Virus record (IMG/VR): IMGVR_UViG_3300045988_080614
Length of the DNA stretch: 64,000 bases
DNA from: a virus
Strand: one strand, 5' to 3'
The position numbers and the translations under genes are program-made. This document shows positions 1,027 through 33,302 of the stretch, piece by piece (the first letter of the stretch is position 1; every line of letters begins with the position of its first letter). The notes beneath the pieces were generated by a model that made no database searches, was not told the origin of the DNA, and saw only the letters and a program-made list of their open reading frames with translations.

Positions 1027-1068
1027 AATAAAAAAGGGAGAAGGTATAAACCTCCTCCCTTATTTTTT
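1027..1068. terminator. bidirectional intrinsic terminator between convergent genes
   Basis: Stem-loop GGGAGAAGG(1036-1044)-tataaa-CCTCCTCCC(1051-1059) with one mismatch, A-run on the left and T-run on the right. Lies between the stops at 1026 (+) and 1067 (-). Confidence 0.7.
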
Positions 1069-4000
1069 ATTTATACCATCTTGCTGGTTCATCTGGATTT
1101 AATGAATTAACAATCTGTTTTCTAAATGGTAATAAATCTAAACCAATCTTTTCTGCTTCTGTATATCCTTTATAGATACCACTATTAACAGTAGTTGTAT
1201 ATACAGATGGGTCAATTAAATTTAATACTTTTCTTAATTTATTTATATATGATATTGATGCAAATGGAGAACTAAAGAACTTCAATCCTTCATCAATCAT
1301 TGAAGGACTAGGTAATAATACACCCATATCAGTTCTTAATCTAAGTAAAGCATAACTTGACATTCTTGCAAACCAAGGTTTATGTTTACCATCATCACCT
1401 CCTGCTACACCTAATGCAGCAATAATAGCATATAATGACCAATAGAAACCTAATTCAGTAAGACCTTTCTTTATATTACCTTTCTCAGTATCAGATAAGT
1501 GTTTCCATTGCCTGATAATATCAAACTCTGATTGTTTAAGGTCTTTCATAGATTGATATATAAATCTACCCATAGTCATATAATAACCTTCAGTATAATC
1601 TTGTAAATCATAATTATATTTACCTCTACCAAATCTATTAAGATATAAAGGTCTCATCCAGTTTCTATAGAACATTATAAGTCTTCCTGCTGCTCTTTGT
1701 TGTAAAGCATTTTTATCTTCATCATTATAGATACCATAATTCATATTCTGAACTGCTCTATTTTGATTACTGAATTTAATAATATCTGCTCTGGTAAAAT
1801 CACTACCATCCATCTTGGTAATACCGGGTTTTATCTGTAACTTAGCACCTAATTTAGGTTTATCTTTATTAATAGGAACTACTTCCAAAGCATCCCATAA
1901 ATCAATAGAATTACCATTTTTATCCTTTAATTTATATCTTAATGCTAAAGCAATAGCAGCTCTATGTTGTACAAAATGGTCTCCTGCACTGGTAGTAAAC
2001 CAAAGAGCATTACTATTAAATAATCTTGAAGCCCAAGTCTTTCTATTCCATTGTACATCTCTTACACTTGACTTATAATTCTGAGGAACATTAAATAATT
2101 CACTGAATAAAGCTAGTTTATTAGTCTTTATTCTATTACCAAATTCTCCTAAGAATGCAGGTAATTCTTTAGCATATATAGCCTCTGCTTTAACTAACTC
2201 TGAATGATTAAAGAATCTACCACTAGTAGCTTCAATTCTATCAATAGTTAAGTTCTGTAATAAGTTAGCAGTACCAGTAAGAACACTTAAAGCTGTAGTA
2301 CCTAATGATGTCATTCTATTCAAGAAATCTGCACCTTTAGCTACATCTACTTTACCTAAAGAACCTTCATCTTTATGAGTAATACCATAGACTTGCATTT
2401 CCATAAATGTATTTAATTTCTGCATAAAATATGTAGAATCTCCTTTCTTAGTAAGTACATTATGTATCTGTCTTCCTAACACATTAAAATGTTCAGTCTT
2501 AGTTTTATTACCTTCTGTCTGATTAATTCTTCTTTCTGCTAATACAAGTCTTCCTACTTCAAGAGTATCAATAACTTCATTCATTCTATTAAAGTCATTT
2601 ACCATAGCCATATAAGCTATCATAGATGATGTAGTATCAAGAGATAAGTCATTCATATCCTGTAAATCCTTAGTATAATATACTGGTAATCTCATTACCT
2701 GATTACCTTCAAAGTCCATTACTACAGATTTATCAAGATACTCAACATCATCTTCTCTTCTTACAAGAGAATCCTTCATATTCTCCCAGAAGTATTTACC
2801 TTGACTAGATAAAGAAGAACCAGTAAATCTCTGTAAGAAATCTCTTCTTATCTGAGGAGCTTTACCTACAGATACACTGGAAGAATTAGGTAATACACCA
2901 TCAAGTTTAGACTTTAATTCCATCATATAACTATGATATTCTTTCTGAGCTTCTGTAAGTTTATTCCAAGCAGGATTAGCATACTTTTCTATAAGAGGTC
3001 TTCTATTACCAAATTTATCTTTATAAGTGTTATTCTTATACCACTCATTTATTTCATTATCTCTTGCAATCTTTTCAAATCCTTCAGGATTATCCCCATA
3101 TTTCTCTTTTAATTTTTTAAAGAATATATTCTTAGCATTCTTATATTTACTCCACCAAATCTTTTGTACAAAATAACCTGTAAGATTACCATCTTCATCT
3201 CTTTCATACATAAATGAAGTATCAGTTACTCCTCTGTCTTCAAGTTCTTTAGCTTTAGCTTGAATTTCTTTAGCCATTTCAATAGTATCAAGTCTAGCTT
3301 CCCCTTTCTGTTTCTTTACAACTTGGTCATAAATCTGTAACATAGGGTCAGAAGAATCTGCCATTGAATCTAACCATCTATCAGCTAAAGTAATATCTCT
3401 ATCCATAGAAGTTACTAATTCTTCTGCTGTATAAGTTTTCTTATATCTATCTCTACCAATAGTTATAGCTAAACCATCCCCAACAAATGGTCTTATAAAT
3501 TCAGTAAACTTATCTTTGGCTATCTCATAGAAATCTGATGATAAATCCTTTATTATAATATCATTCTGATTAAGAATATCCTTAATATTTTCTTTAATAC
3601 TATCATCTCCTTCTCTAGAAGCTTCATTCATCTGTTTTCTGATGTCATTCATAATAACACCATAAGAATTAAGATAGTTTCTTACATTTCTAAGAGCCTT
3701 GAATTCCTCAGTTTTTGATAATTCACCACTACCAATTTTAGCCATTCTCTTTTCAAGATTACCAAGAACTTTAAGACTATTGTCCATATATTCAAGAATA
3801 CCTTGTATCTCCTGATGATTCTGTAAATCAGCTTGTAATTTATTAATAAATACTTGCTGAGCAGCACTAAAATCTTCTTTATCACCATATACTTTTAATC
3901 TCTTTAACTCCTGCTCAAGAATCTTTTCAAGTATCTTAGCTGACTTACTTACATTACTAGTAAGATTATATAACTTAGTGTTATGAGCTTTAGTGCTGAT

Positions 4001-19490: not shown

Positions 19491-19970
19491 TTAATTAGTA
19501 GTACCAATACCCCCTCTATTATCATTATTAAGATTATCTACCTTAATAAGCTCTACACCATTACTAAATAACCATTTAAGCTTAGTTAAAATACCCGCAT
19601 TCATCTTAGGCATAATCCTAAATTGACAAATTCTAGTACCCTTTGGAATCTCTGTAGCTTTAAATGCTTTAGCAATATAGTTCCATTCATCTTCATTTCC
19701 CTTATAGGACTCATCAATAACTCCCTGGGAATTAGCAAGTTCAATATTCCACTTATTAGGTGTAGAACTTCTAGGAAGTATATAAGCTTCAAATCCTTTA
19801 GGAAGTTCCATAGCAATACCTAGAGGAAGATATTTAATCTTTCTAGATTGTACTTCTGGACCTGTAAATCTTACATCTTCTGCAAGCTTTAAATCAATCC
19901 AATCACCCTGTTCAATAATTTCTGGCATACAGCCTTCAGTAATCTCCTTAACTTTAATCTTTAATTTCAT
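19491..19970 (-). CDS. dut: dUTPase
   Basis: ILPRSST (motif 2), GVIDESYKGNEDEW (motif 3), RICQFRI (motif 4). Confidence 0.85.
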   Translation of the reverse strand: MKLKIKVKEITEGCMPEIIEQGDWIDLKLAEDVRFTGPEVQSRKIKYLPLGIAMELPKGFEAYILPRSSTPNKWNIELANSQGVIDESYKGNEDEWNYIAKAFKATEIPKGTRICQFRIMPKMNAGILTKLKWLFSNGVELIKVDNLNNDNRGGIGTTN

Positions 19971-19981
19971 TCTTTTTTAAT

Positions 19982-20164
19982 TTAAAATATTAAACTATTA
20001 TACATAACTCTTTCATATTGAGCTTTAAATCCTTCTTTTTGTCCAAGAGTTAAATTCCTAAACCATAAAGCAACATAATCTCTATACTTAGGATGATTAT
20101 CCTTAATAAAAGATTGTATTAACCAATCTTCAAAATCTATATCATAATAAATATTAGTACTCAT
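19982..20164 (-). CDS. hypothetical protein (60 aa)
   Basis: ORF with ATG start, overlapping the nrdG stop. Confidence 0.5.
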   Translation of the reverse strand: MSTNIYYDIDFEDWLIQSFIKDNHPKYRDYVALWFRNLTLGQKEGFKAQYERVMYNSLIF

Positions 20165-20652
20165 TTCTGTAATTTATAAGTTATATCAGTAAAGACAGTT
20201 TCATAATCTGTAAACTTTCCTTCTGTTCTTACTTCTTTAAGACTATATAATCTCTGATTAGTAGTCTTTGAATCTAAACCTCCTAAATTAGATATATAGG
20301 AACCTACTTTAAGATAATCTAAAAAATTGAGAAAATATCCATAATCTTTTATTATATTAATAATATCTGTACCTACATACATAGCTGTTTTAAGATTATT
20401 CTTAGACATCTTAATATAAGACCATAACATAGGTATATTTTCAGCATTACCCATAAAACATATACAAGTAATACCTTTATTACTATTAATAAGTCTATTT
20501 AATTCTTCTATATCTAACTCTTTACCTTCATCTTTCCAAAGATTTTTCTGATTACAGTCTTTACAATGAACTTTACATCCAGATATAGCAATACATAAAG
20601 TGATTTCATCAGGAATTTCTTGAAATGTTACTTTTGCATATTGATACTTCAT
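20161..20652 (-). CDS. nrdG: anaerobic ribonucleotide reductase activating protein (radical SAM)
   Basis: GCKVHCKDC is a C-x3-C-x2-C radical-SAM cluster motif. Small size and linkage to nrdD. Confidence 0.7.
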   Translation of the reverse strand: MKYQYAKVTFQEIPDEITLCIAISGCKVHCKDCNQKNLWKDEGKELDIEELNRLINSNKGITCICFMGNAENIPMLWSYIKMSKNNLKTAMYVGTDIINIIKDYGYFLNFLDYLKVGSYISNLGGLDSKTTNQRLYSLKEVRTEGKFTDYETVFTDITYKLQK

Positions 20653-21023
20653 TATTCATACCATTTAGGATTTAATTGCTCAAATCCATATTTAACTAAC
20701 TCTTTAAAATTATCCCAAGTATCTAATTGTAGAGGTCTGTCTCCTATAAATTCAAAATTATAGCATTCTTCTTGATAATCATATCTAAAAGTAGCTAATA
20801 CTATACATAATTCTTTACTTTTAAATAAATCCTTATGTATTCTACAACCAGTATTCTTAGGATAACAATAAAATTCATGATTTAGTTTTATGTATTCATT
20901 TTCCTTACCATAATAAAGATTAGGATACCATTTAACTATATCATAAGATACAAAAGGAGGCTTGTTACCTACATAACTAGCCTCCCTAAATTCTAATACA
21001 CCTATTCTTTTAGATTGTATCAT
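20652..21023 (-). CDS. hypothetical protein (123 aa)
   Basis: ORF sharing 1 nt with the nrdG start. Confidence 0.65.
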   Translation of the reverse strand: MIQSKRIGVLEFREASYVGNKPPFVSYDIVKWYPNLYYGKENEYIKLNHEFYCYPKNTGCRIHKDLFKSKELCIVLATFRYDYQEECYNFEFIGDRPLQLDTWDNFKELVKYGFEQLNPKWYE

Positions 21024-21276
21024 GATTAATTATTTTATTTATAGTAGCATAAGATTGATTTCCTACAAGTCTATTATATTCTTGGTCTTCACTTAAAAAG
21101 ATTAAAGTAGGAATACTTCTTATATTATATTTTCTTACTAAATCCTGATTATTGTCTTCCTCAATATCAATACTCTTCATATCTGTTTTATATTCTTTAG
21201 TAATTCTTTCTAAAGTAGCAGATAAAGCTTTACATTGAGGACAACTATCAGATTCAAATTTTAATATCTTAATCAT
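21010..21276 (-). CDS. thioredoxin/glutaredoxin-like protein
   Basis: SCPQCK (C-x-x-C) near the N-terminus of an 88-aa protein adjacent to nrdD. Confidence 0.55.
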   Translation of the reverse strand: MIKILKFESDSCPQCKALSATLERITKEYKTDMKSIDIEEDNNQDLVRKYNIRSIPTLIFLSEDQEYNRLVGNQSYATINKIINHDTI

Positions 21277-21279
21277 TAT

Positions 21280-22547
21280 TTACACATTAATATTTTTATT
21301 ATATACTCTAGTTCCTGCTTCTATTTGTCTATCCACACTAAATAGTTTAATAGGTCTTAAATACCCAATTATCCTTGTATATTGAGATATATTTTTACTA
21401 TGACATTTAGGACATTCTACTATAGGATGCTTAGTAATATAACCACAATCTTCACATTTACTATTAGGTATATTAAAAGTAAAATATGAAGTACCTTCTT
21501 TAATAGCATAATCTATCAATTTTAGATATTGTTCTTTACTTAAATGCTCTTCTAAATTAATATGGCAAGCAGAACCTCCATCTGTATATTGATAAGTAGA
21601 ATTTCCATGTAAATACATCTTATCTAATACACTTATATTAGTATCATTCTGTAAGAAGAAATAAGAATTATATAGATTTCTATTAGAAGGAACAAAATAT
21701 CCATCTTTTTTATCCCAATTATAATTTTTACTAGCAAGAGACTCTGCTGGAACTACTTCGCTATTAAATAAGAATGGTCTTTTCTTATCATTAATTGAAT
21801 GTAAAGCATTTTGCTCCTTTATAGTAGAGAGAATAAGCTGAAGGAATTCAATATAATCTTTATTATTATTTACTTTAAGACCTAAGAACTCAGCAGCCTC
21901 ATTAAGACCATTAATTCCTATAGTAGAATAAAGCTTCTTAATATGAATATAACCAGCATTACAACAAGTAAACATTCCTGCATCTTCCCAATCATATAAT
22001 ATTGTTTTATATGCAATATGATACTTGTATACTCTTTCAAGAATATTAGTAATATATATATTTAAACTATTTCTATTAACCTCTACCTTAATATCTGGTA
22101 TTCCTTCATTTTTCCAATCTCCAACCCAGTCTTGAACAATTCTATTAATATTAAGAGTAATTACATTACAAGAGCCTGTCATAATACCTGTCAATCCTGA
22201 TGTAGGACTAAATGTATTTTTATCTACTTGATTTCTTAACCTGCAACATGAAGCTAAACTATCAGCACTATCACTAATATAAGTAAAGAAACTATGTTTT
22301 TCAGCATACATTTCTGCACATAAATCTTTATATTCTTTATCAATAATATTTTTACCATTATGTACCATTGCAAATGTTTCCACAGGAAAAGCTACTATTG
22401 CTTTTGTTCTAAGTTTATTAAACCATTTCATAAACAATCTTTGCAAAGTATCTATTGCTTTCCATTCTGGTTTAGTACCATCAGGATAATAGAATTCTCC
22501 AAACATTGCTTCAAAATAAGTTTTATCAAAATATGAAATATTTGTAA
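21280..22547 (-). CDS. nrdD: anaerobic ribonucleoside-triphosphate reductase NrdD, exon 2
   Basis: The frame is open upstream of the track ATG through ...VTNISYFDKTYFEAMFGEF. C-terminal Zn ribbon CEDCGY..CPKC and glycyl-radical motif TRIIGYL. Joining to exon 1 gives ...YQSPF-TNISYFD. Confidence 0.8.
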
Positions 22548-22768
22548 CATTTTGTTCACATAGAGTCGTTAATTCTATGCAGTTCTCTTATGAACTTCTT
22601 ATAATTTCTTATAAGCTCAGACTATATCATTACTTATATAAGTAATCCCCGCTTCCACTCACTTGAGTGTACTCCATAAAGGATAGTCGTTGAACCTTAC
22701 CAAAATAAATTGGTCTTGGCTGCTGATTACCATATCAAATGACTTAGGGTTCCAGCAATTCAAGGATT

Positions 22769-23473
22769 TTATAGTCCACCTACTTTGCCATGTATTTTAT
22801 GGTGACATATAGAACATACAGTTATTAAATTATTAGGATTGTTTAATTCTTTATCTTTAGTAGCAATTTCATACAATTTATCTATGTCTTCTATTGGAGA
22901 TAATGGATAATTTTGTACTATAATTCTATCTAATATTACTTTAAAAGGGATTAAATGATGTACTTGTAGATTATCTTTACTTCCACAAATTATACATTTA
23001 TTTTTATCTCTATTAAGTATTTCCTTTTTTAAAGAATTATTACTACAATATTCTCGAAGTCTTTGAGATAATGTAGTTATACCACCCTTCCAATTAGGAT
23101 GATTATTACCTACCATTAATCCTATTTTACTTTCAGAATTGTTTCTAATTTTTATTCCTAAATTCTTTAAAACTCTATCAATAACACAAGGGTCACAATT
23201 ATATCTAAGACCAAGTTCTTTCTTTGAAAGTCCTTCTTTTAAATATAATCTTTCCATAACTTCTTTATTAGTAAAATCTTTTGGAATTTCTTTAGACTTA
23301 AAATTCCATTGTGACTCTACTAAAGTTCTCCTTGTAATAGAATGTTTCTTTAATCTTAATAAGATTGTTCTATGTGTAGTCTTAAACTGTTCTGCAATCT
23401 CAGTTAAAGACTTTCCTTGTAAATACAAGTCAATAATAATACTATCATTTAAATCTTTTCTATGTGCTGCCAT
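22769..23473 (-). CDS. intron-encoded HNH homing endonuclease with N-terminal HTH repeats
   Basis: CIICGSKDNLQVHHLIPF ... CSICHHKIH is an HNH motif with Zn-binding Cys pairs. Two HTH-like repeats at the N-terminus. Confidence 0.8.
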   Translation of the reverse strand: MAAHRKDLNDSIIIDLYLQGKSLTEIAEQFKTTHRTILLRLKKHSITRRTLVESQWNFKSKEIPKDFTNKEVMERLYLKEGLSKKELGLRYNCDPCVIDRVLKNLGIKIRNNSESKIGLMVGNNHPNWKGGITTLSQRLREYCSNNSLKKEILNRDKNKCIICGSKDNLQVHHLIPFKVILDRIIVQNYPLSPIEDIDKLYEIATKDKELNNPNNLITVCSICHHKIHGKVGGL

Positions 23474-23493
23474 AAATATAATTATTTAGGCTG

Positions 23494-23525
23494 CAAAGAT
23501 ACAAAATTTATTTGAAAGTACCAAA
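23494..23525 (-). promoter_or_regulatory. Bacteroidota-type promoter inside the nrdD intron, driving the HNH ORF
   Basis: Minus strand reads TTTG(23525-23522)-N20-TATCTTTG(23501-23494), 20 nt upstream of the HNH ATG. Confidence 0.55.
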
Positions 23526-23532
23526 CTTCTTA

Positions 23533-24430
23533 ATGGACTTTGATATGACCTATTACCAGCAGGTTGATTAATACCCCATACAAATTGACTAAAGGCTTTA
23601 TAGATTCTATCTCTTACTGTTCTTTGAATTTTAATATAAGGACTAGTAGCATATAAATCTAGCTTATCATACCATTTATCTCCAAATTCCATAATAGTAT
23701 AATAATTTAAAGCTATAAAATAAGAACCTACTGCTACTGCACCCTTACATTGAGAGGACAATGTAAATATAAGATTAGTTAATTGACCACTAAATGACTC
23801 TAAATCATTAGGTGGAGTAGGAGTTACTCCATCAATATTACCTACACCTTCTAACATTAAAGGATAGAGACTTACTGCCATACAATAGAATTTAGGTACA
23901 GGAGTACTTGCTTCATCATTAGTATAAATAATATGATTATTTAAATCTTTTTCATATTGCTTTGCTAATTCAGGAAATAATTCATTAAGTTTATCCTTCA
24001 TTCTTTGTCTTTGAATAAGCCTATTTTCATCTTTATATACTTCTGCTTCAAGAGATGCTACATTTTTAATAGCAGTATTAGCATTAGGGTCTGTATTACT
24101 AGAAGTTGCTGCATTTTCTTGGTTATTCTTATATTCTTCCATATAATGTAACCTCTTAATTCTAGTTCTAGCTTCCTTATGTTTTTCTCTATAAAGAATA
24201 TAAGATTTAGCAATATTAGGATAATTACCCATAAGATAATATTCTACTGTATCTTGAATACTTTCAGTATTAATATTATCAGTAGTAAAGGCATTAGCAA
24301 ATTCTTTAAACTCATTCTCATTAAATTTGTCTTCTTCCTTACAGGACTCAAAAGCCTTCCTAATAGCATTTACTATTTTATTTGAATCCCATTTAACTTT
24401 ACTACCATCTCTTTTTATTACATATGTCAT
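23533..24430 (-). CDS. nrdD: NrdD, exon 1 (ATP-cone and N-terminal catalytic part)
   Basis: MTYVIKRDGSKVKWDSNKIVNAIRKAF is an ATP-cone start. It ends ...INQPAGNRSYQSP + T. The track ORF tail LRSLVLSNKFCIFAA is read-through into the intron. Confidence 0.8.
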
Positions 24431-24449: not shown

Positions 24450-25514
24450 TTATTCCATTTTATCTATCCAAGTTCTCAAATCATTAGAACTTTCAATATT
24501 TATTCCCATAGGAACTGTGGCTCCTGTAGAGAGATAATACCAAAGTTCTTTACCTACTTCCCAAGGTGCTTCAAGTTTAATTTGATTATTTTTACCAAGA
24601 TATAATGTACCTTCTACAAAAGTAAAATCACAATCCCATACAAGTGGAATCATATTAGACTTAGAAATTACTATATCTTTATAAGGTAAAATTGTGAAGT
24701 CTTTAAAGTATTCATCCTTTTCAATATTAAGTTTAAGAATTCTTGCATATAATCTACATTGATATGCATAATTCCACTCTATAAATGACTTATAGAAATT
24801 ATATGTAGGTTTATATGATGTCTTTACATCTACAGGTTGAATAGTTTTATTCTTATAATCTACTCTAAGAATATCAAACATGCATCTATAAGGAACACCA
24901 TCTATTTCTGCTTTAAACTTTAATTGATAAAGATTTTCACAATCATCAAAAGGATTATTCTTCTTAAAATATAATGCAGTTTGAGAACTTTCAATAAGAG
25001 CATTAGCCATCTGATGTGCTATATTATTAAGCTCTGTACTTATTAAGATTTTATCTTTAGCTAGGTACAATAAATTATAGTAATCAGATGCTCTTTCCTT
25101 AATTACTTTTGCTCTAGTTTCTGGTTTCCAATTTAACTGAAATCCATTAATATTTGTAGAATCTATAATAAGATTATCTGGTATCTTATACAATGAATCA
25201 TAAGTACTTGAATAACTATTAAATAAAGATTTTACAATAGTTTCTACTTTATCAGTAATAGGAGGAAATTCTGCTACTAAATACCTTCTTTCATATTCTT
25301 CAGGAGGGTCAGTAGTTAAACAATCTACTAAAGAACCTAACAATAAAGAAGGACTTTCAACCTTATCAAACAATGTATCTAAATGTTCAAATCCTTCTCT
25401 CTTAAATTTAGATATAGTAGAATAACTAAGAGCTTTATCAGCTCTATAATTTTCCTCAGAAGTTATCCATGATATATCATAAAGACTCTTCTTTCCATTT
25501 CCATTTATATCCAT
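24450..25514 (-). CDS. PD-(D/E)XK family nuclease (Cas4/RecB-like exonuclease)
   Basis: MFDILRVD...QPVDVKTSYKP is a D...D-x-K nuclease core. The track start at 25550 is TTG; ATG candidates are at 25544 and 25514. The 5' end overlaps the HNH gene. Confidence 0.45.
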   Translation of the reverse strand: MDINGNGKKSLYDISWITSEENYRADKALSYSTISKFKREGFEHLDTLFDKVESPSLLLGSLVDCLTTDPPEEYERRYLVAEFPPITDKVETIVKSLFNSYSSTYDSLYKIPDNLIIDSTNINGFQLNWKPETRAKVIKERASDYYNLLYLAKDKILISTELNNIAHQMANALIESSQTALYFKKNNPFDDCENLYQLKFKAEIDGVPYRCMFDILRVDYKNKTIQPVDVKTSYKPTYNFYKSFIEWNYAYQCRLYARILKLNIEKDEYFKDFTILPYKDIVISKSNMIPLVWDCDFTFVEGTLYLGKNNQIKLEAPWEVGKELWYYLSTGATVPMGINIESSNDLRTWIDKME

Positions 25515-26064
25515 AACAAGTTTTTCTTTTATTATTACATACATCTCCAATATGTCCAGTCATAGCTGGTTTATAATTAAAGCCTAAAGAAATTAAAGCA
25601 TCTTTACATGATGGAAATTCTGCAATTATTTTATTTGTTACAATATCTATTTGTAATACTGGTTTAAATCTTTTATAAATTGTATTTAAATTTTGACAAT
25701 TTTTAGATTGTGTAACACATCTAAGATTGTTTATATTATTATTAGAAGTATTACCATCAATATGATCAATAACCATATTCTTAGGTATATTTCCTTTATA
25801 TGTAATATAAACTAATCTATGAACTCTATAATCTTTTTTAATTCCATTATGTGTTAAATTAACATACCAATATCTTTGCTTAAAGAACTGCTTCAAAATT
25901 CTTTCCTTATAACATCTTTGAGATTTATTATCTGTTCCATAATGACTATTTAAAACAGATAAGTTTCCTTCTCTTATTTTAGGAAGGGCTTTAACAACTC
26001 CATTTCTACTTATAGCATAGTCTTCTAAGCCTGGAATAATTTTAAAATTTATATTCATTTCCAT
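25477..26064 (-). CDS. free-standing HNH homing endonuclease (NUMOD4 + HNH_3 type)
   Basis: IPGLEDYAISRNGVV (NUMOD4-like), IDHIDGNTSNNNINNLRCVTQSKN (HNH), and C-terminal GYKWKWK. Confidence 0.75.
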   Translation of the reverse strand: MEMNINFKIIPGLEDYAISRNGVVKALPKIREGNLSVLNSHYGTDNKSQRCYKERILKQFFKQRYWYVNLTHNGIKKDYRVHRLVYITYKGNIPKNMVIDHIDGNTSNNNINNLRCVTQSKNCQNLNTIYKRFKPVLQIDIVTNKIIAEFPSCKDALISLGFNYKPAMTGHIGDVCNNKRKTCYGYKWKWKEESL

Positions 26065-27524: not shown

Positions 27525-28183
27525 AATTTATCTATATTATCTACAAGAAGCTGTTGTATTTCCTCATTAACATTAATATTGGTAGGAGCCTTAACATGTC
27601 TTATAAACTTATCAATATCATTATTAATGATAACTGTCATAGTAGTAAAACCACTTATTATAGAAAAATATCTAGAAACAGTACTACAATATTCAATAAG
27701 ATACTTTTGAATACCTTTACATACAACATTATCACTATTGAAAACTTTAGGACTTACTCTAAGTATAAGCTCTGTGGTAGCTGATGTTCTTCTAGGAGGT
27801 CTAATAGTAGATAATACTAATGGTTCTAAATTACTATTAAGTATTAAACCTCTCATTCCATAATAAAGATTACCATCTTTATCTCGAATTTTATTTAATT
27901 CTCCTGCTTCTCTAATTAAACTTAACTCTTTTAAAAGAGGACCAAAAGTTTTTCTTTCATTTATACTAGTAGAAGAAGAAGTAAATAGTGGAATTATTCC
28001 TCTCAAAGATAAAGAATTATAAATAGGAATCTCTGTAACCTCACCATTAAATATATGATTTGTCATATATATAGAGAATTGGTTATTCTCTGTTCCTAAT
28101 AAAGGTATATTTGTTGAACGGAGAGAGGCTGACGTAACACCAAGAAAGATATTTATATTATTTTTAATATTTTCACTTATCAT
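27515..28183 (-). CDS. hypothetical protein (222 aa), translationally coupled to the E1-like gene
   Basis: The ATG overlaps the E1-like stop (ATGA at 28183). No motif recognised. Confidence 0.65.
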   Translation of the reverse strand: MISENIKNNINIFLGVTSASLRSTNIPLLGTENNQFSIYMTNHIFNGEVTEIPIYNSLSLRGIIPLFTSSSTSINERKTFGPLLKELSLIREAGELNKIRDKDGNLYYGMRGLILNSNLEPLVLSTIRPPRRTSATTELILRVSPKVFNSDNVVCKGIQKYLIEYCSTVSRYFSIISGFTTMTVIINNDIDKFIRHVKAPTNINVNEEIQQLLVDNIDKLCL

Positions 28184-29133
28184 TAATCTTCTTCTTTTAA
28201 GTACATCATATTACAATCATATTCTATAAAGAAAGGTAATTGCTTTATCATAGGAACAATTTCATTAGCACAGAAATTAACTACATTATTTACAATAAAA
28301 GAAGCTATCATACAAGCCATAAAAGTAGTTTGTTTTAAACTACATACAGTTTCATCTGCTTCTTCATCAGAAAATAAGAATTCTTTTTCATATCTATCCT
28401 GATTATATGTATCTGTACCTACAATAGTGAGTATTTGTAAAGTATCAAATGACAATCTGGCATCAATATATAGACATTTAGATTTATCTTTCTGTAATTC
28501 TACATGTTTTCTCCAGTTATTAAAGAATACCTTTCTAGCTTCCATATTATCAAAACCACAAATCATAATATCAGAAGTAAAACTATTCCTAGTATATAAT
28601 TCTCGCATAGCAAATATATCAGTATATTTACTATAATAGCTAACAGTTTCTGCTATGGCATCCACTTTATATTTATCTATATCCTTGATACCAAACATTT
28701 GTCCAGCAAGATTAACTTCCTCAACTTTATCATTATCAAAGATATAGATACTCTTAGGATGTATTCTAGCTAATTGAAATATAGCATTTGAAGAAATACC
28801 TCCTGCACCTCCTACAATAATAACTTTCTCTTTAATTTTATTAAACCATTCTGCTCCTGAAAATCTAGCAGTTTCATCATGATAATCTTCACTTATAGGA
28901 GGAATTTCCTGATGTTGATTTTTAATAACTTCATTCAAAAAAGCTTCATCTTCTTCTGATAATATAGATTCTGATTCTTCTTCTACTACTTCTTCAGGTC
29001 CTAATATTGATGTTGTTTCTCTGTCGGTTATCTCTAAAGGAGCAATAGCAACTTCTGGAACATTAACTGTAGTATTTACTATTTGTTCCATATTAACCTC
29101 CAAAGGTGGAGTTATAGTTGATTCTTCATTCAT
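28183..29133 (-). CDS. ThiF/MoeB/E1-like adenylyltransferase with an acidic N-terminal extension
   Basis: KVIIVGGAGGISSNAIFQLARI is a Rossmann G-x-G-G-x-G motif. IFDNDKVEEVNLAGQ resembles the ThiF D-x-D-x-V-x-x-S-N-L-x-R-Q block. Confidence 0.7.
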   Translation of the reverse strand: MNEESTITPPLEVNMEQIVNTTVNVPEVAIAPLEITDRETTSILGPEEVVEEESESILSEEDEAFLNEVIKNQHQEIPPISEDYHDETARFSGAEWFNKIKEKVIIVGGAGGISSNAIFQLARIHPKSIYIFDNDKVEEVNLAGQMFGIKDIDKYKVDAIAETVSYYSKYTDIFAMRELYTRNSFTSDIMICGFDNMEARKVFFNNWRKHVELQKDKSKCLYIDARLSFDTLQILTIVGTDTYNQDRYEKEFLFSDEEADETVCSLKQTTFMACMIASFIVNNVVNFCANEIVPMIKQLPFFIEYDCNMMYLKEED

Positions 29134-29137
29134 AATT

Positions 29138-29980
29138 TTAAATAATAAAACGTTCTACTTCATCCTCTATAACTTCAATAAAGGAATTAGTTTTAAATGT
29201 ATGTAATTTCTGTAATACACCATAAGCACATATAGCCATTTGTGAATCTTCAAGATAACCTTCTTCTGCTAAATTATCATCAAAGGCTTCTGTTACAAGA
29301 AATTCTACAAAATAACCAATAAAAGCTCTATAATTTGCTAAACCTTTTTGTCCCTCTCCAAATCTTTTAGAAAATACTGTAGGCATTTTTTGAACCCATT
29401 CATTGAGGTCTTTTGGAGTAAAAATAGGACTACCTATAAGTAATTGTTTAACAATATTATTTAAGTCTGTTTCATTAAATTTATACTTATTATAATCAAT
29501 AGATTCATCTGTATCTACTCCTGTTTGAACAGCAGTATTAGTCTTAGAGAAAGGTATATTTGCTTCCTTATATAAAGGTGTTGCCTTTAAAGTAGGTTCA
29601 ACAATAAGATTAGTACGAGGCTCTCTACTAATATTTGTATTTTTAATCTTATCCTTACTAATTTCTTCAATTCTACTAAATAGGTCTGTATAACCAATAT
29701 TTACAGTAGGCTTTTCAATATTCAAGAAGAAATATTCTATTTCATAAGATTCTATAGCATCATATTCATCATTACCTATATTAATAGTTTCTTCACCAAA
29801 GAACTCATATTCAAGTACTTCTGTTACATGAGGAATATGTTTAACTTTTCTTGTAATTGCCGCAGTATATTGACCGGCATTATTAACAATCAAAGATAAG
29901 AAATTATTCATATCAGAACCTTCTTCTTGAAGAGTTCCAAGGTCAGTTCCACTGAAAAACGTTGACATCTGGTCATGTGA
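29138..29980 (-). CDS. JAMM/MPN (JAB) metallopeptidase-domain protein, exon 2
   Basis: The frame is open 4 codons upstream of the track ATG: SHDQMSTFFSGTD. Joined to exon 1 it gives GLMH-SHDQMSTFFSGTD, which is H-x-H-x7-S-x2-D. Confidence 0.75.
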   Translation of the reverse strand, partial: SHDQMSTFFSGTDLGTLQEEGSDMNNFLSLIVNNAGQYTAAITRKVKHIPHVTEVLEYEFFGEETINIGNDEYDAIESYEIEYFFLNIEKPTVNIGYTDLFSRIEEISKDKIKNTNISREPRTNLIVEPTLKATPLYKEANIPFSKTNTAVQTGVDTDESIDYNKYKFNETDLNNIVKQLLIGSPIFTPKDLNEWVQKMPTVFSKRFGEGQKGLANYRAFIGYFVEFLVTEAFDDNLAEEGYLEDSQMAICAYGVLQKLHTFKTNSFIEVIEDEVERFII

Positions 29981-30045
29981 CTTAATGTTATCCTTACAGC
30001 TCTTTATCTGTAAGTTCTTGTTTTTATAATAAAAATAGTTAATTA

Positions 30046-30077
30046 TTTGCTTATTTAAAATCTAATTTGTACCTTTG
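30046..30077 (+). promoter_or_regulatory. Bacteroidota-type promoter for the LAGLIDADG ORF
   Basis: TTTG(30046-30049)-N20-TACCTTTG(30070-30077), 11 nt before the first ATG. Confidence 0.55.
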
Positions 30078-30088
30078 CACATAATAAA

Positions 30089-30979
30089 ATGATTTATATT
30101 ATGGGAAAATTAAAATTAGAAAATAAAAAAGATTTAATTTTATCTCTTTATAAAGAAGGTAAAACTCCAATAGAAATATCTAAAATATTAGGTACTTATT
30201 TACAGCCTATAACTAATTTATTAAAAGCTTATATACCTAATATTAAATTTACTCCTAATAAGGGGAATGTTCATTATTTTCATACTATAGATAGTTATGC
30301 AAAAGCTTATATTGTAGGTTTTATAGCTGCTGATGGAGCTTTAGTAAAACCTAAACATGGTAATGATGCTTTAACTATAACAATTAAATATGAAGATAAG
30401 TCTGTTTTAGATTTTATAAAATCTGAAATAGGTAATGAACATAAAATTCAAGAAATAATTCGACCTTCTAGTTTTGATAAAACTAAAATAATTCATCATG
30501 CTAGATACTGTATAACAGATAAAAATATAGCAGATGATTTACATAAATTAGGTATAGATAATAATAAAAGTTTAACTATGGGAAATATTATAGAAAATAT
30601 TCCATATAAATATAGAGATGCTTTTATTATAGGATATTTTGATGGAGATGGTTCTGTAACTATTAGAAACAGATTATATTCTAATGATAGAAATTTTTTA
30701 TGTAAGGATTTCTCTCTATATGTACAAATTAGAGGGACTATTAAATTTCTATCTGGAATATGTAATCATTTAAAAATAACTACTTCTCATATACATCAAA
30801 TTGATTCTATACCACAATTAAGTTTTGCAAATAAAAAAGATACTTATAGATTCTTTCAATGCTATAAAAATCTTCCATTTTATTATAAAAGAAAGTATGA
30901 TAAATTCTTACAAAGAATAAATCATCCTTCTTATGACAAATATAAACAAGTTCAGACTATATCATCATCTATAGAATAA
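30089..30979 (+). CDS. LAGLIDADG homing endonuclease (double-motif), antisense to its host intron
   Basis: YIVGFIAADGAL and FIIGYFDGDGSV are two LAGLIDADG motifs. An alternative ATG is at 30101. The last 10 codons are antisense to the intron core block GATATAGTCTGA. Confidence 0.8.
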   Translation: MIYIMGKLKLENKKDLILSLYKEGKTPIEISKILGTYLQPITNLLKAYIPNIKFTPNKGNVHYFHTIDSYAKAYIVGFIAADGALVKPKHGNDALTITIKYEDKSVLDFIKSEIGNEHKIQEIIRPSSFDKTKIIHHARYCITDKNIADDLHKLGIDNNKSLTMGNIIENIPYKYRDAFIIGYFDGDGSVTIRNRLYSNDRNFLCKDFSLYVQIRGTIKFLSGICNHLKITTSHIHQIDSIPQLSFANKKDTYRFFQCYKNLPFYYKRKYDKFLQRINHPSYDKYKQVQTISSSIE

Positions 30980-31146
30980 TCTATAGAGTTGGGCACTCGT
31001 GTCACTATTATATTCTGCGTGATTAGCAGTTTCAAGTGTTAGTCGTTGAACCTTCAAAGAGGTTTTAACCTCTAAGCTTGGCTGCTGATTGTGGCTTGTC
31101 AACCAGTTTCCAGCAATTCACCCAATTTTATATGCACTCACAGTTA

Positions 31147-31440
31147 ATGCATTAAGCCTTGCTGACATTCTAATAAGTCATGTTCTATCATATAATTACA
31201 GATTTCTGCACTCTTATCAAACTCAGTATAAGTAGCAGAACCATAATCCATAAGACAGAAATCTTTAGCAGTTAATACTAAAGAATTATCTTCAAATCTA
31301 CCAGTATAATCATAGAATAATACTCCACTATATTCATTATTAGGAAATCTAGCACACAAGAATCTAATCTTTTCTTCTAGTTCTGGAGTAATAATTAACT
31401 TATATGTATTATCTTGTTTCTTTAATATATTTTTGTCCAT
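31147..31440 (-). CDS. JAMM/MPN metallopeptidase-domain protein, exon 1
   Basis: PNNEYSGVLFY carries the conserved Glu of the MPN fold. It ends QQGLMH, immediately before the intron TAA. Confidence 0.75.
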
Positions 31441-32524
31441 AATTATAATTTATAAATTCTAATATATTCCGTATTGCCACATTAATATATTTTACATTAA
31501 GAATATATACAGGTTCAATAGTAGTATCAGTATCTATAATCCTCATTTTAACAGGTATATTCTTAAATGTAAATAAGACATCAGTACTAGGACTACAAGA
31601 ACTGTGTCTATTACTATCTTCTTCAGTAAAACATCCTTTATAAAAGACTGCTTTTATAAGAATTTTAGCTCTTACTAACTCATTTAAATCTGTAGAAAGT
31701 TCTTTATTATTAAATCTTTTATTATAAATTGCTATAAACTCATTGCTTATTAATCTAATTAAAGAAGCATCATTATCAGCAAAACTATAAGTATTATTTA
31801 CATATTTAAAAGTAAATACTTTTCTATTTATAAGATTACGTATGGCTTCTTTTATAATAAATGAAATTTCTGAAGAGGTTCTACAACTAGTATCTGAAAA
31901 AATTATTTCTTTATTACTATTATTTCTACCAATATATTCCATTCTGTAATAAGGAACTCCTGCTATAGATTCTACTGTAACATATCTAGCTAATTCCACA
32001 CAGAATAATCTCCATATATTTTCATTATTTTCATCTCTAAGAATAGTACAAGTTGTTCCAATAGGACCTCCTCCTAAACAAGGTCTCTGAAAATAAGCTT
32101 TACCATGACTTAAAGAACCTGAAGGTAAATGGGAATGTGTATAATTACTTTCATATAAAACTTTAGTGAAAGTAGTAACAATCATTTCAAATCTTTTAGC
32201 TTGTTTTCCTGCATAATCAAGTGGTACTTTAACATATAAGTCATGAATATCTACACTATTATCTTTTTCATTAGTAATAGTTACATTAGGAAAATGAACT
32301 AATATAATATATGAAAATTCACATAATGGAAGTAAAGGAGAATTTAAAGTATCTTCCAAGTTTTCACCTTCTGCTATTAAAGTTTCTACAGCATCTTTAA
32401 AATCTTTATCTACTTGAAAGTCTACTTTAGTTTCACCAAAGAAACTTTTAAATATTTCATATACTTTAAGAGCTTCTTCTGTAGGAGTATAATATTTATT
32501 TCTTATCTGTTCTTTTATATCCAT
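31409..32524 (-). CDS. hypothetical protein (371 aa); possible E2/UBC-like core (very tentative)
   Basis: The track start at 32548 is TTG inside a hairpin; the first ATG (MDIKEQ) is at 32524. YTHSHLPSGSLSHGKAYFQRPCLGGGPIG loosely resembles the UBC HPN...C-L segment. The 3' end overlaps the JAMM exon 1 start. Confidence 0.55.
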   Translation of the reverse strand: MDIKEQIRNKYYTPTEEALKVYEIFKSFFGETKVDFQVDKDFKDAVETLIAEGENLEDTLNSPLLPLCEFSYIILVHFPNVTITNEKDNSVDIHDLYVKVPLDYAGKQAKRFEMIVTTFTKVLYESNYTHSHLPSGSLSHGKAYFQRPCLGGGPIGTTCTILRDENNENIWRLFCVELARYVTVESIAGVPYYRMEYIGRNNSNKEIIFSDTSCRTSSEISFIIKEAIRNLINRKVFTFKYVNNTYSFADNDASLIRLISNEFIAIYNKRFNNKELSTDLNELVRAKILIKAVFYKGCFTEEDSNRHSSCSPSTDVLFTFKNIPVKMRIIDTDTTIEPVYILNVKYINVAIRNILEFINYNYGQKYIKETR

Positions 32525-32528
32525 AAGT

Positions 32529-32570
32529 AATAAAAAAGAAGGGAGCAAATATATTACTATACTTACTCCC
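32529..32570 (-). terminator. hairpin plus T-run between the 237-aa gene and the 371-aa gene
   Basis: Minus strand reads GGGAG(32570-32566)-20 nt-CTCCC(32545-32541) followed by TTCTTTTTTATT, ending 4 nt before the ATG at 32524. Confidence 0.45.
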
Positions 32571-32588
32571 TATTAGATTTTTTATAAA

Positions 32589-33302
32589 TTACATGTTTTT
32601 AAACATATCATTAAGTTCATTTGATGAATATGGAGAATCTGATTCCTCTTCCTTTGAAGCATTTGAAGTATCTGAAGTGACATTACCAATAATAGCAATA
32701 TTATCAATATCAATATCATCAGAATAATCCATACCTGCATTCTCCATTTCTTTCAAAAGACTTTCAATAACTTTCCTAAGTTCTGCTTTAGTAACATAGC
32801 TACTAAGGTCAGTAGTCTTCATAGCAGGCTTATTAGGAACTTCCTTCTTTGCAGGAGCTGCTTTAGCTGTAGAAGCTGAAGCATCTGCTATTGCAGGAGC
32901 TGCTTCTTTGTTAAGAATCTTCTGCAAATCTTCTGTCTTACAGTTAGTATAATTCTTACCATAAGTCTTCTTAACTACTTCTGTAAGGTTCTTAACCTTA
33001 ATCTCCTCAATGATAGCCTTTCTATCAAGCTTTGCTCCACTTCTAATCTTCTTTGAAGCATTAGTAATCATAAATACCAAGTTATTAGTAGTAGTTCCCT
33101 TATAAGGAACATCATGTGGAAGGATAGCAGCATCATTCTTCAATTCAATCTTAGTAAGACCCTCAAAGAATGTACAATCAGTATAATCAATACCTGCCTT
33201 AGTAAGGTCTGCTTTGAGTTCTGCCAATGTTGTTGCTGCACTTTCAATAACTTGTGTCTTGTGAGTCTTTGTAGGAATCACTGTAATCTTTCTTTTTTCC
33301 AT
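32589..33302 (-). CDS. hypothetical protein (237 aa) with a possible N-terminal beta-grasp (ubiquitin-like) domain
   Basis: Residues 1-85 have a strand-strand-helix-strand pattern (ITVIP, QVIES, TLAELKADLTKAGI, TFFEG, IELK, LVFMIT) ending KKIRSG. An A/P/K-rich linker follows, then a second copy of the AEL+..L.K...AG(I/M)DY(T/S)D helix. Confidence 0.5.
   Translation of the reverse strand: MEKRKITVIPTKTHKTQVIESAATTLAELKADLTKAGIDYTDCTFFEGLTKIELKNDAAILPHDVPYKGTTTNNLVFMITNASKKIRSGAKLDRKAIIEEIKVKNLTEVVKKTYGKNYTNCKTEDLQKILNKEAAPAIADASASTAKAAPAKKEVPNKPAMKTTDLSSYVTKAELRKVIESLLKEMENAGMDYSDDIDIDNIAIIGNVTSDTSNASKEEESDSPYSSNELNDMFKNM

Follow-up and report, generated by a model that had tools for sequence, protein, structure and literature searches.

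A group I intron with an antisense LAGLIDADG endonuclease gene splits the zinc-ligand motif of a JAMM-like gene in crAss-like phages

The window analyzed here, a 64,000-nucleotide stretch of DNA from the IMG/VR virus record IMGVR_UViG_3300045988_080614, carries on its minus strand a JAMM/JAB-like gene that is interrupted by a group I intron and followed by a ThiF/E1-like gene. The intron contains an open reading frame (ORF) for a LAGLIDADG homing endonuclease on the opposite strand. The features of the locus, in window coordinates, are the following.

28183..29133, minus strand: ThiF/E1-like gene, downstream neighbor of the JAMM gene (Pfam ThiF, E 6.2e-15)
29138..29980, minus strand: exon 2 of the JAMM/JAB-like gene, 280 codons and stop, starting SHDQMSTFFSGTD
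29981..31146, minus strand: complete group I intron, 1166 nt, beginning with UAA (an in-frame stop) and ending with omega-G at 29981
29981..30034, minus strand: ribozyme 3′ block, intron nt 1113-1166, 100% identical to nt 213-266 of the intron in contig L156
29993..30014, minus strand: P9.1 hairpin, CUUACAG-AUAAAGAG-CUGUAAG
30017..30023, minus strand: P9 3′ strand, AAACAAG
30035..30934, plus strand: endonuclease cassette, 900 nt, in the terminal loop of P9; this segment is absent from the 266-nt L156 intron
30046..30077, plus strand: putative Bacteroidetes-type promoter, TTTG-N20-TACCTTTG (-33 and -7 boxes), by consensus match
30089..30979, plus strand: ORF of the LAGLIDADG homing endonuclease, opposite in strand to intron and host gene; 296 aa when read from the first ATG
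30935..30979, both strands: dual-use stretch, 45 nt; on the minus strand the P8 3′ strand, J8/7, the P7 3′ strand, and the P9 5′ strand
30935..31146, minus strand: ribozyme 5′ block, intron nt 1-212, recognized by the RF00028 match, L156 identity, and covariation
30944..30950, minus strand: P9 5′ strand
30955..30959, minus strand: P7 3′ strand
30968..30987, minus strand: P8
31040..31044, minus strand: P7 5′ strand
31132..31137, minus strand: P1 guide GUGCAU, intron positions 10-15
31138..31141, minus strand: P10 guide GUGA
31147..31440, minus strand: exon 1 of the JAMM/JAB-like gene, 98 codons, ending ..ECQQGLMH (CAT)

A minus-strand search with the Rfam group I intron model (RF00028) matched 30937..31156 across the full model (positions 1-253) with 69.8 bits against a gathering threshold of 50 (E 3e-17), and homologous introns score 69-79 bits with the same model. 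A chance match to the group I model is excluded. Whole-window Rfam scans, run with the gathering threshold and with an E-value threshold, reported tRNAs only and not the intron. This is due to the speed filters of the search, since the intron surfaces only when a short stretch is scanned, and the missing whole-window match is therefore no evidence against it.

The ribozyme is assembled from two blocks that flank the endonuclease cassette. Besides the elements listed above, the 5′ block holds P3, P4, P5, P6/6a, P7.1, P7.2, P3′, and J8/7 (GAUGAUAUAGUC), and it shares 99.5% identity with nt 1-212 of the ORF-less, 266-nt L156 intron. The intron closes with the tail GAUAACAUUAA and omega-G. The extra helices P7.1 and P7.2, located between P7 and the 3′ strand of P3, are both present and both covary, and P2 is absent; by these sequence features the intron is a member of subgroup IA.

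Exon 1 ends in AUGCAU, the exon strand of P1, and its last base (U at -1) is paired to intron G10. The first four nucleotides of exon 2 (UCAC) pair with the intron GUGA as P10. An in-frame TAA directly follows the CAT codon of exon 1, and the reading frame of exon 2 is open from 29980, four codons ahead of its ATG. Joining 31147 to 29980 (predicted junction, ..GGCTTAATGCAT joined to TCACATGACCAG..) is in frame and yields a 378-aa protein with H-S-H-x7-S-x2-D. The JAMM zinc motif is thus interrupted after its first His codon, ahead of the codons for Ser-His (H|SH; GLMH|SH), and the complete motif E-x(n)-H-x-H-x7-S-x2-D exists only after the exons are joined. We suggest that self-splicing would remove the intron from the JAMM mRNA and restore E..HSHx7SxxD, with exon AUGCAU, guide GUGCAU, and the U.G pair setting the 5′ splice site, the terminal G marking the 3′ site, and P10 forming between exon 2 UCAC and intron GUGA. 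Translation of unspliced RNA would end at the splice site, where the intron starts with UAA in frame.

JAMM/MPN+ metalloproteases (Prok-JAB, archaeal JAMM1, AMSH, and Rpn11) are often paired with E1-like ThiF proteins. The host gene resembles them in its full E..HxHx7SxxD motif and in the adjacent ThiF gene, which holds the same neighbor position in all related loci. It differs in the weak similarity of its protein, which stays below the Pfam cut-off, and in a long C-terminal extension of ∼230 aa with no recognized domain. Across 12 divergent homologues (42-52% identity), residues E36, H98, H100, S108, and D111 do not vary. The host protein scores 16.5-18.3 bits against Pfam Prok-JAB, below the curated cut-off of 25; 11 of the 12 homologues match this family (best E 2e-5). 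The best solved relative is JAMM1 (5ld9), a weak match (E 0.016) in which the profile aligns HSH..S..D. Given the sub-cut-off Prok-JAB scores and the JAMM1 E value, the JAMM assignment rests mainly on the complete motif.

Intron-less alleles, 97-99% identical, mark the boundaries of the insertion. The intron-less contig L001 differs by precisely the 1166-nt insertion, with a 1-nt T ambiguity at the boundary, and the empty sites of L001 and L002 read ..AATGCAT|TCACATGA.., identical to the flanks of the filled site. More than 100 proteins of 378 aa, each encoded contiguously, match the predicted spliced product from end to end at 97-99% identity, and the exact 98-aa product of exon 1 is present on 177 public contigs. 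Exons in the intron-carrying lineages keep full ORFs and the motif and evolve with dN/dS of 0.15-0.44, indicative of purifying selection, which supports, at the sequence level, a host gene that is still in use in intron carriers.

A total of 25 distinct introns, all at this codon, were collected from divergent crAss-like phages. Their boundaries are identical, all 25 end in G, and the position of the split is the same to the nucleotide even between phages that share only 28-53% identity in their exons. Covariation was evaluated over 21 distinct trimmed ribozymes with a hand-drawn P1-P10 structure of 70 pairs, in which P7 was entered as a pseudoknot. In this set, 98.2% of cells pair versus 32-45% in slid controls, although a structure drawn from the window sequence favors pairing there. 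Compensatory double changes were found in 31 of the 70 pairs, a count reached by none of 500 shuffles, and they fall in P1, P3, P5, P6a, P7.1, P7.2, P8, P9, and P9.1. The exon and guide strands of P1 change together (AUGCAU/GUGCAU, AUCCAU/GUGGAU, and GUGCAU/GUGCAC; 2 of 6 pairs compensatory), and the U.G pair at the 5′ splice site is kept in 21/21 sequences, as is an invariant P10 (GUGA/UCAC). The long-range P9, which encloses the cassette, covaries as well (CUUGUUU/AAACAAG, CUUGUCU/GGACAAG, and CUCACU/AGUGAG), with compensatory changes in 4 of 7 pairs; the corresponding counts are 6/7 in P9.1 and 2/4 in each of P7.1 and P7.2. P4, P6, P7, and P10 never vary and are therefore neutral on the fold, neither for nor against it.

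An alternative is that no splicing occurs: the JAMM gene would be permanently broken, into two independent genes or as a pseudogene, and the endonuclease gene between its halves would be free-standing. The halves are indeed handled as separate proteins by gene callers and by the PHROG library (phrog_21448 covers residues 14-87 and phrog_16107 residues 97-276), and exon 2 has an ATG four codons in. We regard this explanation as extremely unlikely. It is at odds with a complete, covarying ribozyme whose P1 and P10 pair with both exons, with a split at one and the same nucleotide in phages of such low exon identity, with halves neither of which has the full zinc motif, and with purifying selection on the exons of carriers. 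In addition, ORF-less versions of 266-300 nt at the same site are inexplicable by a free-standing endonuclease. The first-pass annotation had named a covariance-model search and related phages among the places where its proposal might fail. The search matched the group I model above threshold, the homologous introns support the P3-P9 core by covariation, and the relatives, rather than two independent genes, carry one contiguous gene with an intact motif. Its group I intron at 29981-31146, its splice-site rules (U at -1 with the G of guide GUGCAU, and a terminal G), the TAA after exon 1, the four open codons ahead of the exon 2 ATG, and the JAMM motif regained on joining all held.

The plus-strand ORF within the intron encodes a LAGLIDADG protein by several lines of evidence. 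It matches Pfam LAGLIDADG_3 (E 3.8e-8; 33.9 bits versus a cut-off of 22.5) and PHROG 4645, "endonuclease" (E 1.6e-37, residues 5-273), and it has two LAGLIDADG motifs, GFIAADGAL and GYFDGDGSV. An Asp is kept in both motifs in all aligned homologues, at the catalytic acidic position of LAGLIDADG enzymes. The endonuclease has 426 homologous clusters and evolves under purifying selection (dN/dS of 0.08-0.33). A sequence search for a solved relative of the endonuclease alone returned none that was informative. The true start is probably the second ATG, at 30101, giving 292 aa, since a TAA directly follows the first ATG in three relatives and since the protein collection contains an exact match to the 292-aa form but none to the 296-aa form. 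The antisense LAGLIDADG gene of the first-pass annotation and its reading frame were thus upheld, and its start at the first ATG is the less likely of the two.

The limits of the cassette were defined against the otherwise 99.5-100% identical 266-nt ORF-less intron of L156. By this comparison, the cassette comprises the promoter motif, a short leader, and the LAGLIDADG ORF minus its last 14 codons and stop. The cassette itself supplies no stop codon to the ORF, which reads on for 14 codons (DKYKQVQTISSSIE) into the antisense of the catalytic core, and its stop codon (30977..30979) falls within the P8 loop. An overlap with the core had been proposed before at ∼10 codons; the overlap is real and larger, at 14 codons plus the stop, or 45 nt. 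The PHROG profile match ends at residue 273 of 292 and leaves out the overlapping tail; the L017 sister endonuclease terminates ahead of J8/7.

Neither the unspliced mRNA nor the excised intron can encode the endonuclease, as both hold only its reverse complement. Most likely, the gene would be transcribed by the host RNA polymerase from the TTTG-N20-TAnnTTTG motif, which lies 11 nt ahead of the first endonuclease ATG and 23 nt ahead of the second. The consensus used was a -33 TTTG and a -7 TAnnTTTG box 19-21 nt apart, and the spacer here is 20 nt. The window has 7 matches to this consensus versus 1.77 expected, a number that none of 100 shuffles reached, and 30046..30077 is the only one of them that runs counter to the genes around it. 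Of the 18 distinct endonuclease-carrying introns, 17 have the -7 box; it is absent from all 8 introns without the gene, and the flanking spacer diverges. The exception is the L149 intron, in which the endonuclease is present with no exact -7 box; the L016 and L155 types have no well-spaced -33 TTG. The same motif occurs just upstream of the sense HNH gene of an intron in nrdD, in the same window. The consensus used does not cover promoters of the phage-encoded RNA polymerases on which crAss-like phages also rely. A sigma-70 consensus scan gave 17 promoter-like sites versus 15.9 in shuffles and, with no excess, is uninformative for a Bacteroidetes host. The self-promoted expression claimed earlier thus finds its motif, conserved together with the cassette, and this conservation points to a candidate promoter. 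A plus-strand hairpin at 29993..30014 was considered as a terminator of the endonuclease mRNA and rejected, since it is P9.1 read on the opposite strand and precedes the promoter motif.

The stages of a homing cycle are found together at this one site: an empty site, the full intron, introns of 300-556 nt with a decayed or truncated endonuclease gene, and ORF-less introns of 266-269 nt. In L016 and L166, the same ribozyme carries a sense LAGLIDADG ORF in P7.1, and there are twin-endonuclease introns with both a sense and an antisense gene. A sister intron occupies a second H|SH-coding site in the neighboring gene. The exon 2 flank of L005 is divergent in a manner resembling co-conversion. Between the same phage pairs, the endonucleases are 57-89% identical and the host genes 33-61%. 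Taken together, the element is very likely a mobile IA-type group I intron in the JAMM gene of a human-gut crAss-like phage that spreads by homing by means of its antisense endonuclease cassette. During co-infection, the enzyme would cut intron-less alleles at the conserved sequence ..AATGCAT|TCACATGA.., and repair of the cut allele would then copy the intron in.

The LAGLIDADG protein might instead have been domesticated as a WhiA-like DNA-binding regulator or as an RNA maturase, to the benefit of the phage or the intron. The exact protein carries the JGI name "DNA-binding transcriptional regulator WhiA," its N terminus is helix-turn-helix-like (Pfam HTH domains PF13518 and PF00196 are recorded for longer relatives), and purifying selection extends over 57-100% identity. 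Yet the Asp at the catalytic position is kept in both motifs, and the gene has repeatedly been lost or has decayed while the ribozyme persists in introns of 266-556 nt, a pattern of a selfish nuclease and not of a needed factor. The existence of ORF-less introns means that the ribozyme does not require the endonuclease. Empty and filled sites with identical flanks, the co-conversion-like tract, and endonucleases more alike between phages than the host genes also fit active homing. We therefore consider domestication improbable and retain the homing endonuclease interpretation.

The endonuclease is antisense in every intron that carries this gene, and an antisense endonuclease is unique to the JAMM-site family among 119 related phage introns, so that the earlier remark that such genes are uncommon in group I introns was fair. 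The orientation itself may have a function, if convergent transcription, or pairing of the endonuclease mRNA with the pre-mRNA or the excised intron over ∼0.9 kb (including P8-J8/7-P7), tunes JAMM splicing or limits endonuclease synthesis. This would agree with an orientation that stays the same in every carrier, across 57-100% protein identity, with an ORF that always enters the catalytic-core antisense, and with the sense ORF in P7.1 of L016 and L166, which the same ribozyme tolerates, so that orientation is not set by the ribozyme alone. However, a single ancestral insertion inherited with the cassette explains the invariance equally well, the core-overlapping tail is outside the PHROG match, the L017 sister endonuclease ends short of J8/7, and ORF-less introns persist without an antisense partner. 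A functional orientation is thus unlikely, and the sense/antisense RNA interplay across the ribozyme that was pointed out earlier follows from the geometry rather than from any observed function.

One version of this idea, which we hold to be unlikely, treats the reversed orientation as adaptive: a host-type promoter would free the endonuclease from the phage transcription program, ribosomes would be kept off the ribozyme, and the ∼0.9 kb of complementarity would act as a reciprocal RNA switch. The endonuclease mRNA could then block folding of the core and delay JAMM expression, or an abundant excised intron could silence the endonuclease. If so, bacteria would have their own equivalent of what I-DirII achieves, and antisense control of a ribozyme would have a natural example.

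Mobile group I introns that carry LAGLIDADG genes are well known from textbooks. The JAMM intron resembles the introns of phage T4, which interrupt protein-coding genes at conserved sites, have an IA-type core with P7.1/P7.2, and carry the endonuclease ORF in a peripheral loop (near P9 in sunY). The J8/7-P7 sequence of T4 td, GAUAUAGUCUG, is nearly the same as that of the JAMM intron. T4 introns spread by double-strand-break homing with exon co-conversion, and by analogy the JAMM intron may do likewise. The T4 ORFs are of the GIY-YIG and HNH types and lie on the sense strand, in contrast to the opposite-strand LAGLIDADG gene and Bacteroidetes-type promoter motif of the JAMM intron. The endonuclease genes of T4 introns have their own promoters within the intron (PMC2988022).

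Within the same phage order, a comparable intron interrupts the dUTPase gene of Carjivirus communis, the prototype crAssphage (KP06_gp34/gp35), annotated in BK010471.1 as "contains intron insertion" with an intron-encoded endonuclease. Its core is 74% identical over ∼175 nt. It differs in its host gene (dut) and in its HNH gene, which lies on the sense strand upstream of the core.

Group I introns of nuclear rDNA with antisense endonuclease genes are represented by I-DirII of Didymium iridis and the L2066 introns, and these genes are expressed from their own promoter and not from the intron RNA (PMC3073962, PMC9548176). The JAMM intron is alike in that its endonuclease ORF, contained in a group I intron, is read from the strand that does not encode the host gene, and the promoter motif suggests a similarly independent expression. 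The I-DirII type is eukaryotic, resides in rRNA genes, and has a His-Cys box enzyme, a Pol II promoter, a spliceosomal intron, and a poly(A) tail, whereas the JAMM intron combines a phage protein-coding gene, a LAGLIDADG enzyme, a bacterial promoter motif, and an ORF end that overlaps the catalytic core. The searchable literature describes no antisense endonuclease genes in bacterial or phage group I introns (PMC3984707 mentions none); within it, this layout is otherwise described only for protist and fungal nuclear rDNA introns.

Searchable reviews place the endonucleases of bacterial and phage introns on the sense strand only, and the JAMM family carries the gene backwards with a host-type promoter motif. 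This arrangement is stable across divergent crAss-like phages, in a ribozyme that accepts a second, sense-strand endonuclease gene. In principle, the alleles are no different from the Goddard-Burt homing cycle, as all stages of gain, decay, and loss coexist at the JAMM site; the whole series in one natural phage population and the twin-endonuclease forms are unusual. The series comes from viruses that rank among the most abundant in the human gut, and it offers material to study the gain and loss of endonuclease genes by introns and the ways in which their expression avoids disturbing splicing. The compact 266-nt ribozyme and the new LAGLIDADG specificity may interest ribozyme and genome-engineering work. 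Standard pipelines miss such introns and annotate the JAMM halves as two unrelated proteins, and crAss-like genomes called free of such insertions warrant re-examination.

Against the phage collection, a megablast of 28000..33000 gave no match, and the JAMM gene searched against Carjivirus communis gave none either. The species of the window is not represented in the collection; its nearest record there, cr128_1, is 75% identical in the terminase gene and 38% in the JAMM protein. The nrdD gene harbors the second intron of the window, with its HNH gene on the sense strand and upstream of the core, as in the dUTPase intron of Carjivirus communis. An Rfam scan of 19500..23800 did not report this intron, which was found by core-motif searches.

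The JAMM/JAB-like gene of this phage is interrupted by a group I intron with a LAGLIDADG endonuclease gene on the opposite strand. The finding is real and the first-pass interpretation of it is correct, with splicing, transcription and cleavage predicted from sequence. The features of the locus are as follows.

31440..31147, minus strand: exon 1 ORF, ending ..ECQQGLMH, then TAA
31146..29981, minus strand: main intron, 1166 nt
29980..29138, minus strand: exon 2 frame, open from 29980 and starting SHDQMSTFFSGTD..
30089..30979, plus strand: LAGLIDADG ORF, 296 aa with two motifs, between the host-gene halves
30046..30077, plus strand: TTTG-N20-TACCTTTG, Bacteroidetes promoter consensus match
28183..29133: ThiF/E1-like gene (Pfam), downstream neighbour of the JAMM gene

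The exon ends, the in-frame TAA, the open exon 2 and the in-frame H-S-H junction described in the first-pass annotation all hold on reading both strands, and the in-frame join of 31147 to 29980 encodes 378 aa containing H-S-H-x7-S-x2-D. A protein search found more than 100 contiguous 378-aa proteins matching this predicted product (97 to 99% identity, contigs of ∼94 to 101 kb), so relatives hold one contiguous gene instead of two independent genes lacking the JAMM motif. In cultured crAss-like phages, too, the homologue is in one piece; it is annotated "metalloprotease domain containing protein." The host gene is probably a JAMM gene, judging by its motif: 12 homologues (42 to 52% identity) all conserve residues E36, H98, H100, S108, and D111, and 11 of them match Pfam Prok-JAB (best E value, 2e-5), while the window protein itself falls under the cut-off; a profile search aligns its HSH..S..D with archaeal JAMM1 (E value, 0.016). 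The host exons are intact in intron carriers, with dN/dS of 0.15 to 0.44; therefore, the host gene is still in use, and for this the intron has to be taken out of the RNA. The exact exon 1 product occurs in 177 public contigs; an NCBI record among them bears only the name "hypothetical protein." The two exon products of 29138..31440 match two different PHROGs (phage protein families) of unassigned function, phrog_21448 (residues 14 to 87 of the spliced product) and phrog_16107 (residues 97 to 276); both families may have originated as fragments of genes that introns split in carrier phages.

Comparison with the intron-less phage contig L001 gives a clean 1166-nt gap, flanked by 97.8% and 98.9% identity on its two sides, and the flanks are the same in empty and filled alleles (..AATGCAT|TCACATGA..). 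Gap placement is ambiguous by one base (T); 31146..29981 alone combines U at −1 with a terminal G, in agreement with the splice-site rules claimed earlier. A short-range Rfam scan of the minus strand matched the full RF00028 model at 30937..31156 (69.8 bits; E value, 3e-17; gathering score, 50 bits), bearing out the group I call. The main intron is not reported in whole-window Rfam scans owing to speed filters, a probable reason for its lack of annotation.

With the endonuclease protein and a guide-specific DNA pattern as queries, 25 distinct introns at one codon (..GL[MIV]H | SH..) were recovered from the protein collection, IMG/VR, and metagenome contigs. All start with UAA and end with G, and they occur in crAss-like phages whose exons are 28 to 53% identical to those of the window. 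We aligned 21 distinct ribozymes after trimming the P9 and P7.1 inserts; pair counts use a structure based on the window sequence, with P7 and P10 entered as pseudoknots. Pairing holds in 98.2% of cells, with compensatory double changes in 31 of 70 pairs, a level reached by 0 of 500 shuffles; slid partners pair at 32 to 45%. The exon strand of P1 covaries with the guide strand (AUGCAU/GUGCAU, AUCCAU/GUGGAU, and GUGCAU/GUGCAC), fixing the 5′ splice site. The long-range P9 (30944..30950 with 30017..30023) also covaries (CUUGUUU/AAACAAG, CUUGUCU/GGACAAG, and CUCACU/AGUGAG), which puts the endonuclease gene inside the loop of P9. P4, P6, P7, and P10 show no variation and so say nothing on the fold. 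From the covarying P7.1 and P7.2, together with the absence of P2, we infer an IA pattern under the Michel-Westhof scheme.

The endonuclease ORF matches Pfam LAGLIDADG_3 above the cut-off (E value, 3.8e-8) and does lie opposite to the intron and host gene, an antisense orientation shared by every carrier. Both motifs retain Asp, and endonuclease dN/dS is 0.08 to 0.33. Translation likely starts at the second ATG (30101); the exact 292-aa protein occurs in 21 contigs. A phage contig with near-identical exons (L156) has a 266-nt ORF-less intron at the same site (Rfam, 69 bits), composed of window intron nt 1 to 212 and 1113 to 1166 at 99.5 to 100% identity. The cassette is therefore window 30035..30934 (900 nt), which holds the promoter motif and the ORF minus its end. 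That end does run antisense to the ribozyme core, over 14 codons plus the stop rather than the ∼10 codons first noted: 30935..30979 is antisense to the P9 5′ strand, P7 3′, J8/7, and P8 3′, and the stop codon sits within the P8 loop. The overlap looks more like read-through into constrained RNA than genuine dual coding, because the tail falls past the PHROG 4645 match (ending at residue 273 of 292), its last residues vary along with P8 covariation, and a sister endonuclease in the related contig L017 terminates before J8/7. That the sense/antisense geometry may regulate splicing is conceivable but unsupported.

The promoter proposed for this gene stands as a conserved motif found with it, its activity being putative. 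The consensus has 7 matches in the window (1.77 expected; 0 of 100 shuffles reach 7), and 30046..30077 alone among them opposes local gene direction. Of 18 distinct introns with the endonuclease gene, 17 keep the −7 box in its position despite a diverged spacer, and all 8 introns without the gene lack it. Another match precedes the HNH gene of a second intron, in the anaerobic ribonucleotide reductase gene nrdD.

22548..23532, minus strand: second group I intron, 985 nt
22769..23473, sense strand: HNH gene (PHROG 8446; E value, 1.5e-28)
22682..22699 and 22617..22631: core motifs of this intron
23494..23525, minus strand: TTTG-N20-TAnnTTTG box, directly upstream of the HNH start

The nrdD exon 1 ORF (23486..24430) continues into the intron after ..YQSP, and joining 23533 to 22547 gives ..YQSPFTNISYFDKTYFEAMFGEFYYPDG..; the HNH gene lies between the 5′ splice site and guide GGUGGAC, i.e., in the P1 loop. 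The Rfam scan did not report this intron. Since the consensus also precedes this sense gene, own-promoter expression seems to be the rule for these intron elements, with only orientation special in the main intron. Most motif matches elsewhere in the window parallel those nearby ORFs and tRNA genes that were inspected; an array of 10 tRNA genes occupies 58301..59995 (+). Immediately upstream of the endonuclease promoter motif lies a terminator-like hairpin and T-run (29993..30014, +), formed by P9.1 and P9 in reverse complement; this element could insulate the promoter from read-through or may be incidental.

The nearest annotated ribozyme, the dUTPase intron of prototype crAssphage, is 74% identical to that of the main intron, but with an HNH gene in sense orientation, upstream of the core. 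The closest functional parallels are T4 introns, having endonuclease genes with their own promoters, but on the sense strand (PMC2988022), and nuclear rDNA introns, such as the I-DirII and L2066 introns, which share antisense genes, but of the His-Cys box type (PMC3073962, PMC9548176). Antisense or opposite-strand genes go unmentioned in a review on group I introns of bacteria (PMC3984707), and a crAss-like genome survey describes the alpha-gamma groups as lacking such insertions (PMC7886860). Of 119 IMG/VR loci that share this P7 motif, 2 have a credible antisense ORF, both from this intron family, in line with the earlier remark that such genes are uncommon. As read from sequence, this is a phage IA-type group I intron with a reversed LAGLIDADG gene that has its own promoter motif.

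Between the same phage pairs, endonuclease identity (57 to 89%) is well above host-gene identity (33 to 61%). In contig L005, the exon 2 flank diverges sharply from the junction (first 45 nt after the intron) while the exon 1 flank is almost unchanged, resembling a co-conversion tract copied from some distant donor. Both patterns fit horizontal homing with co-conversion. Intermediate introns (300 to 556 nt) retain just C-terminal remnants of the endonuclease gene; twin-endonuclease introns (1959 nt; L016/L019/L164/L151) add to the antisense gene in P9 a sense LAGLIDADG ORF (203 aa), housed in a P7.1 loop that an 11-bp stem closes; and the 975-nt intron of L166 has the sense ORF only. The family displays every stage of the homing cycle. 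In L017 (IMGVR_UViG_3300014541_000001), the JAMM gene is intact, and a sister group I intron (2870..3835; Rfam, 75.9 bits) interrupts its upstream neighbour at ..DYMH|SHVSG..; this intron has an antisense LAGLIDADG gene too, a relative at 56% identity. Therefore, the family occupies two H|SH-coding sites in adjacent genes. The window copy of that upstream gene is uninterrupted (..YTHSHLPSG..). This 379-aa gene (31409..32548, −), with family matches in neither Pfam nor PHROGs, contains ..YTHSHLPSGSLSHG.., the motif where its L017 homologue is invaded.

Other polymorphisms separate the window from L001. A free-standing HNH endonuclease gene (25477..26064, −; 195 aa; PHROG 59; E value, 5.5e-26) is missing from L001, which is otherwise 96.5 to 99% identical, a presence/absence polymorphism. 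L001 carries at 230..1122 a ∼890-nt insert with a weak GIY-YIG ORF (454..1062), absent from the corresponding window site (∼36272/36273), which is another mobile-endonuclease polymorphism.
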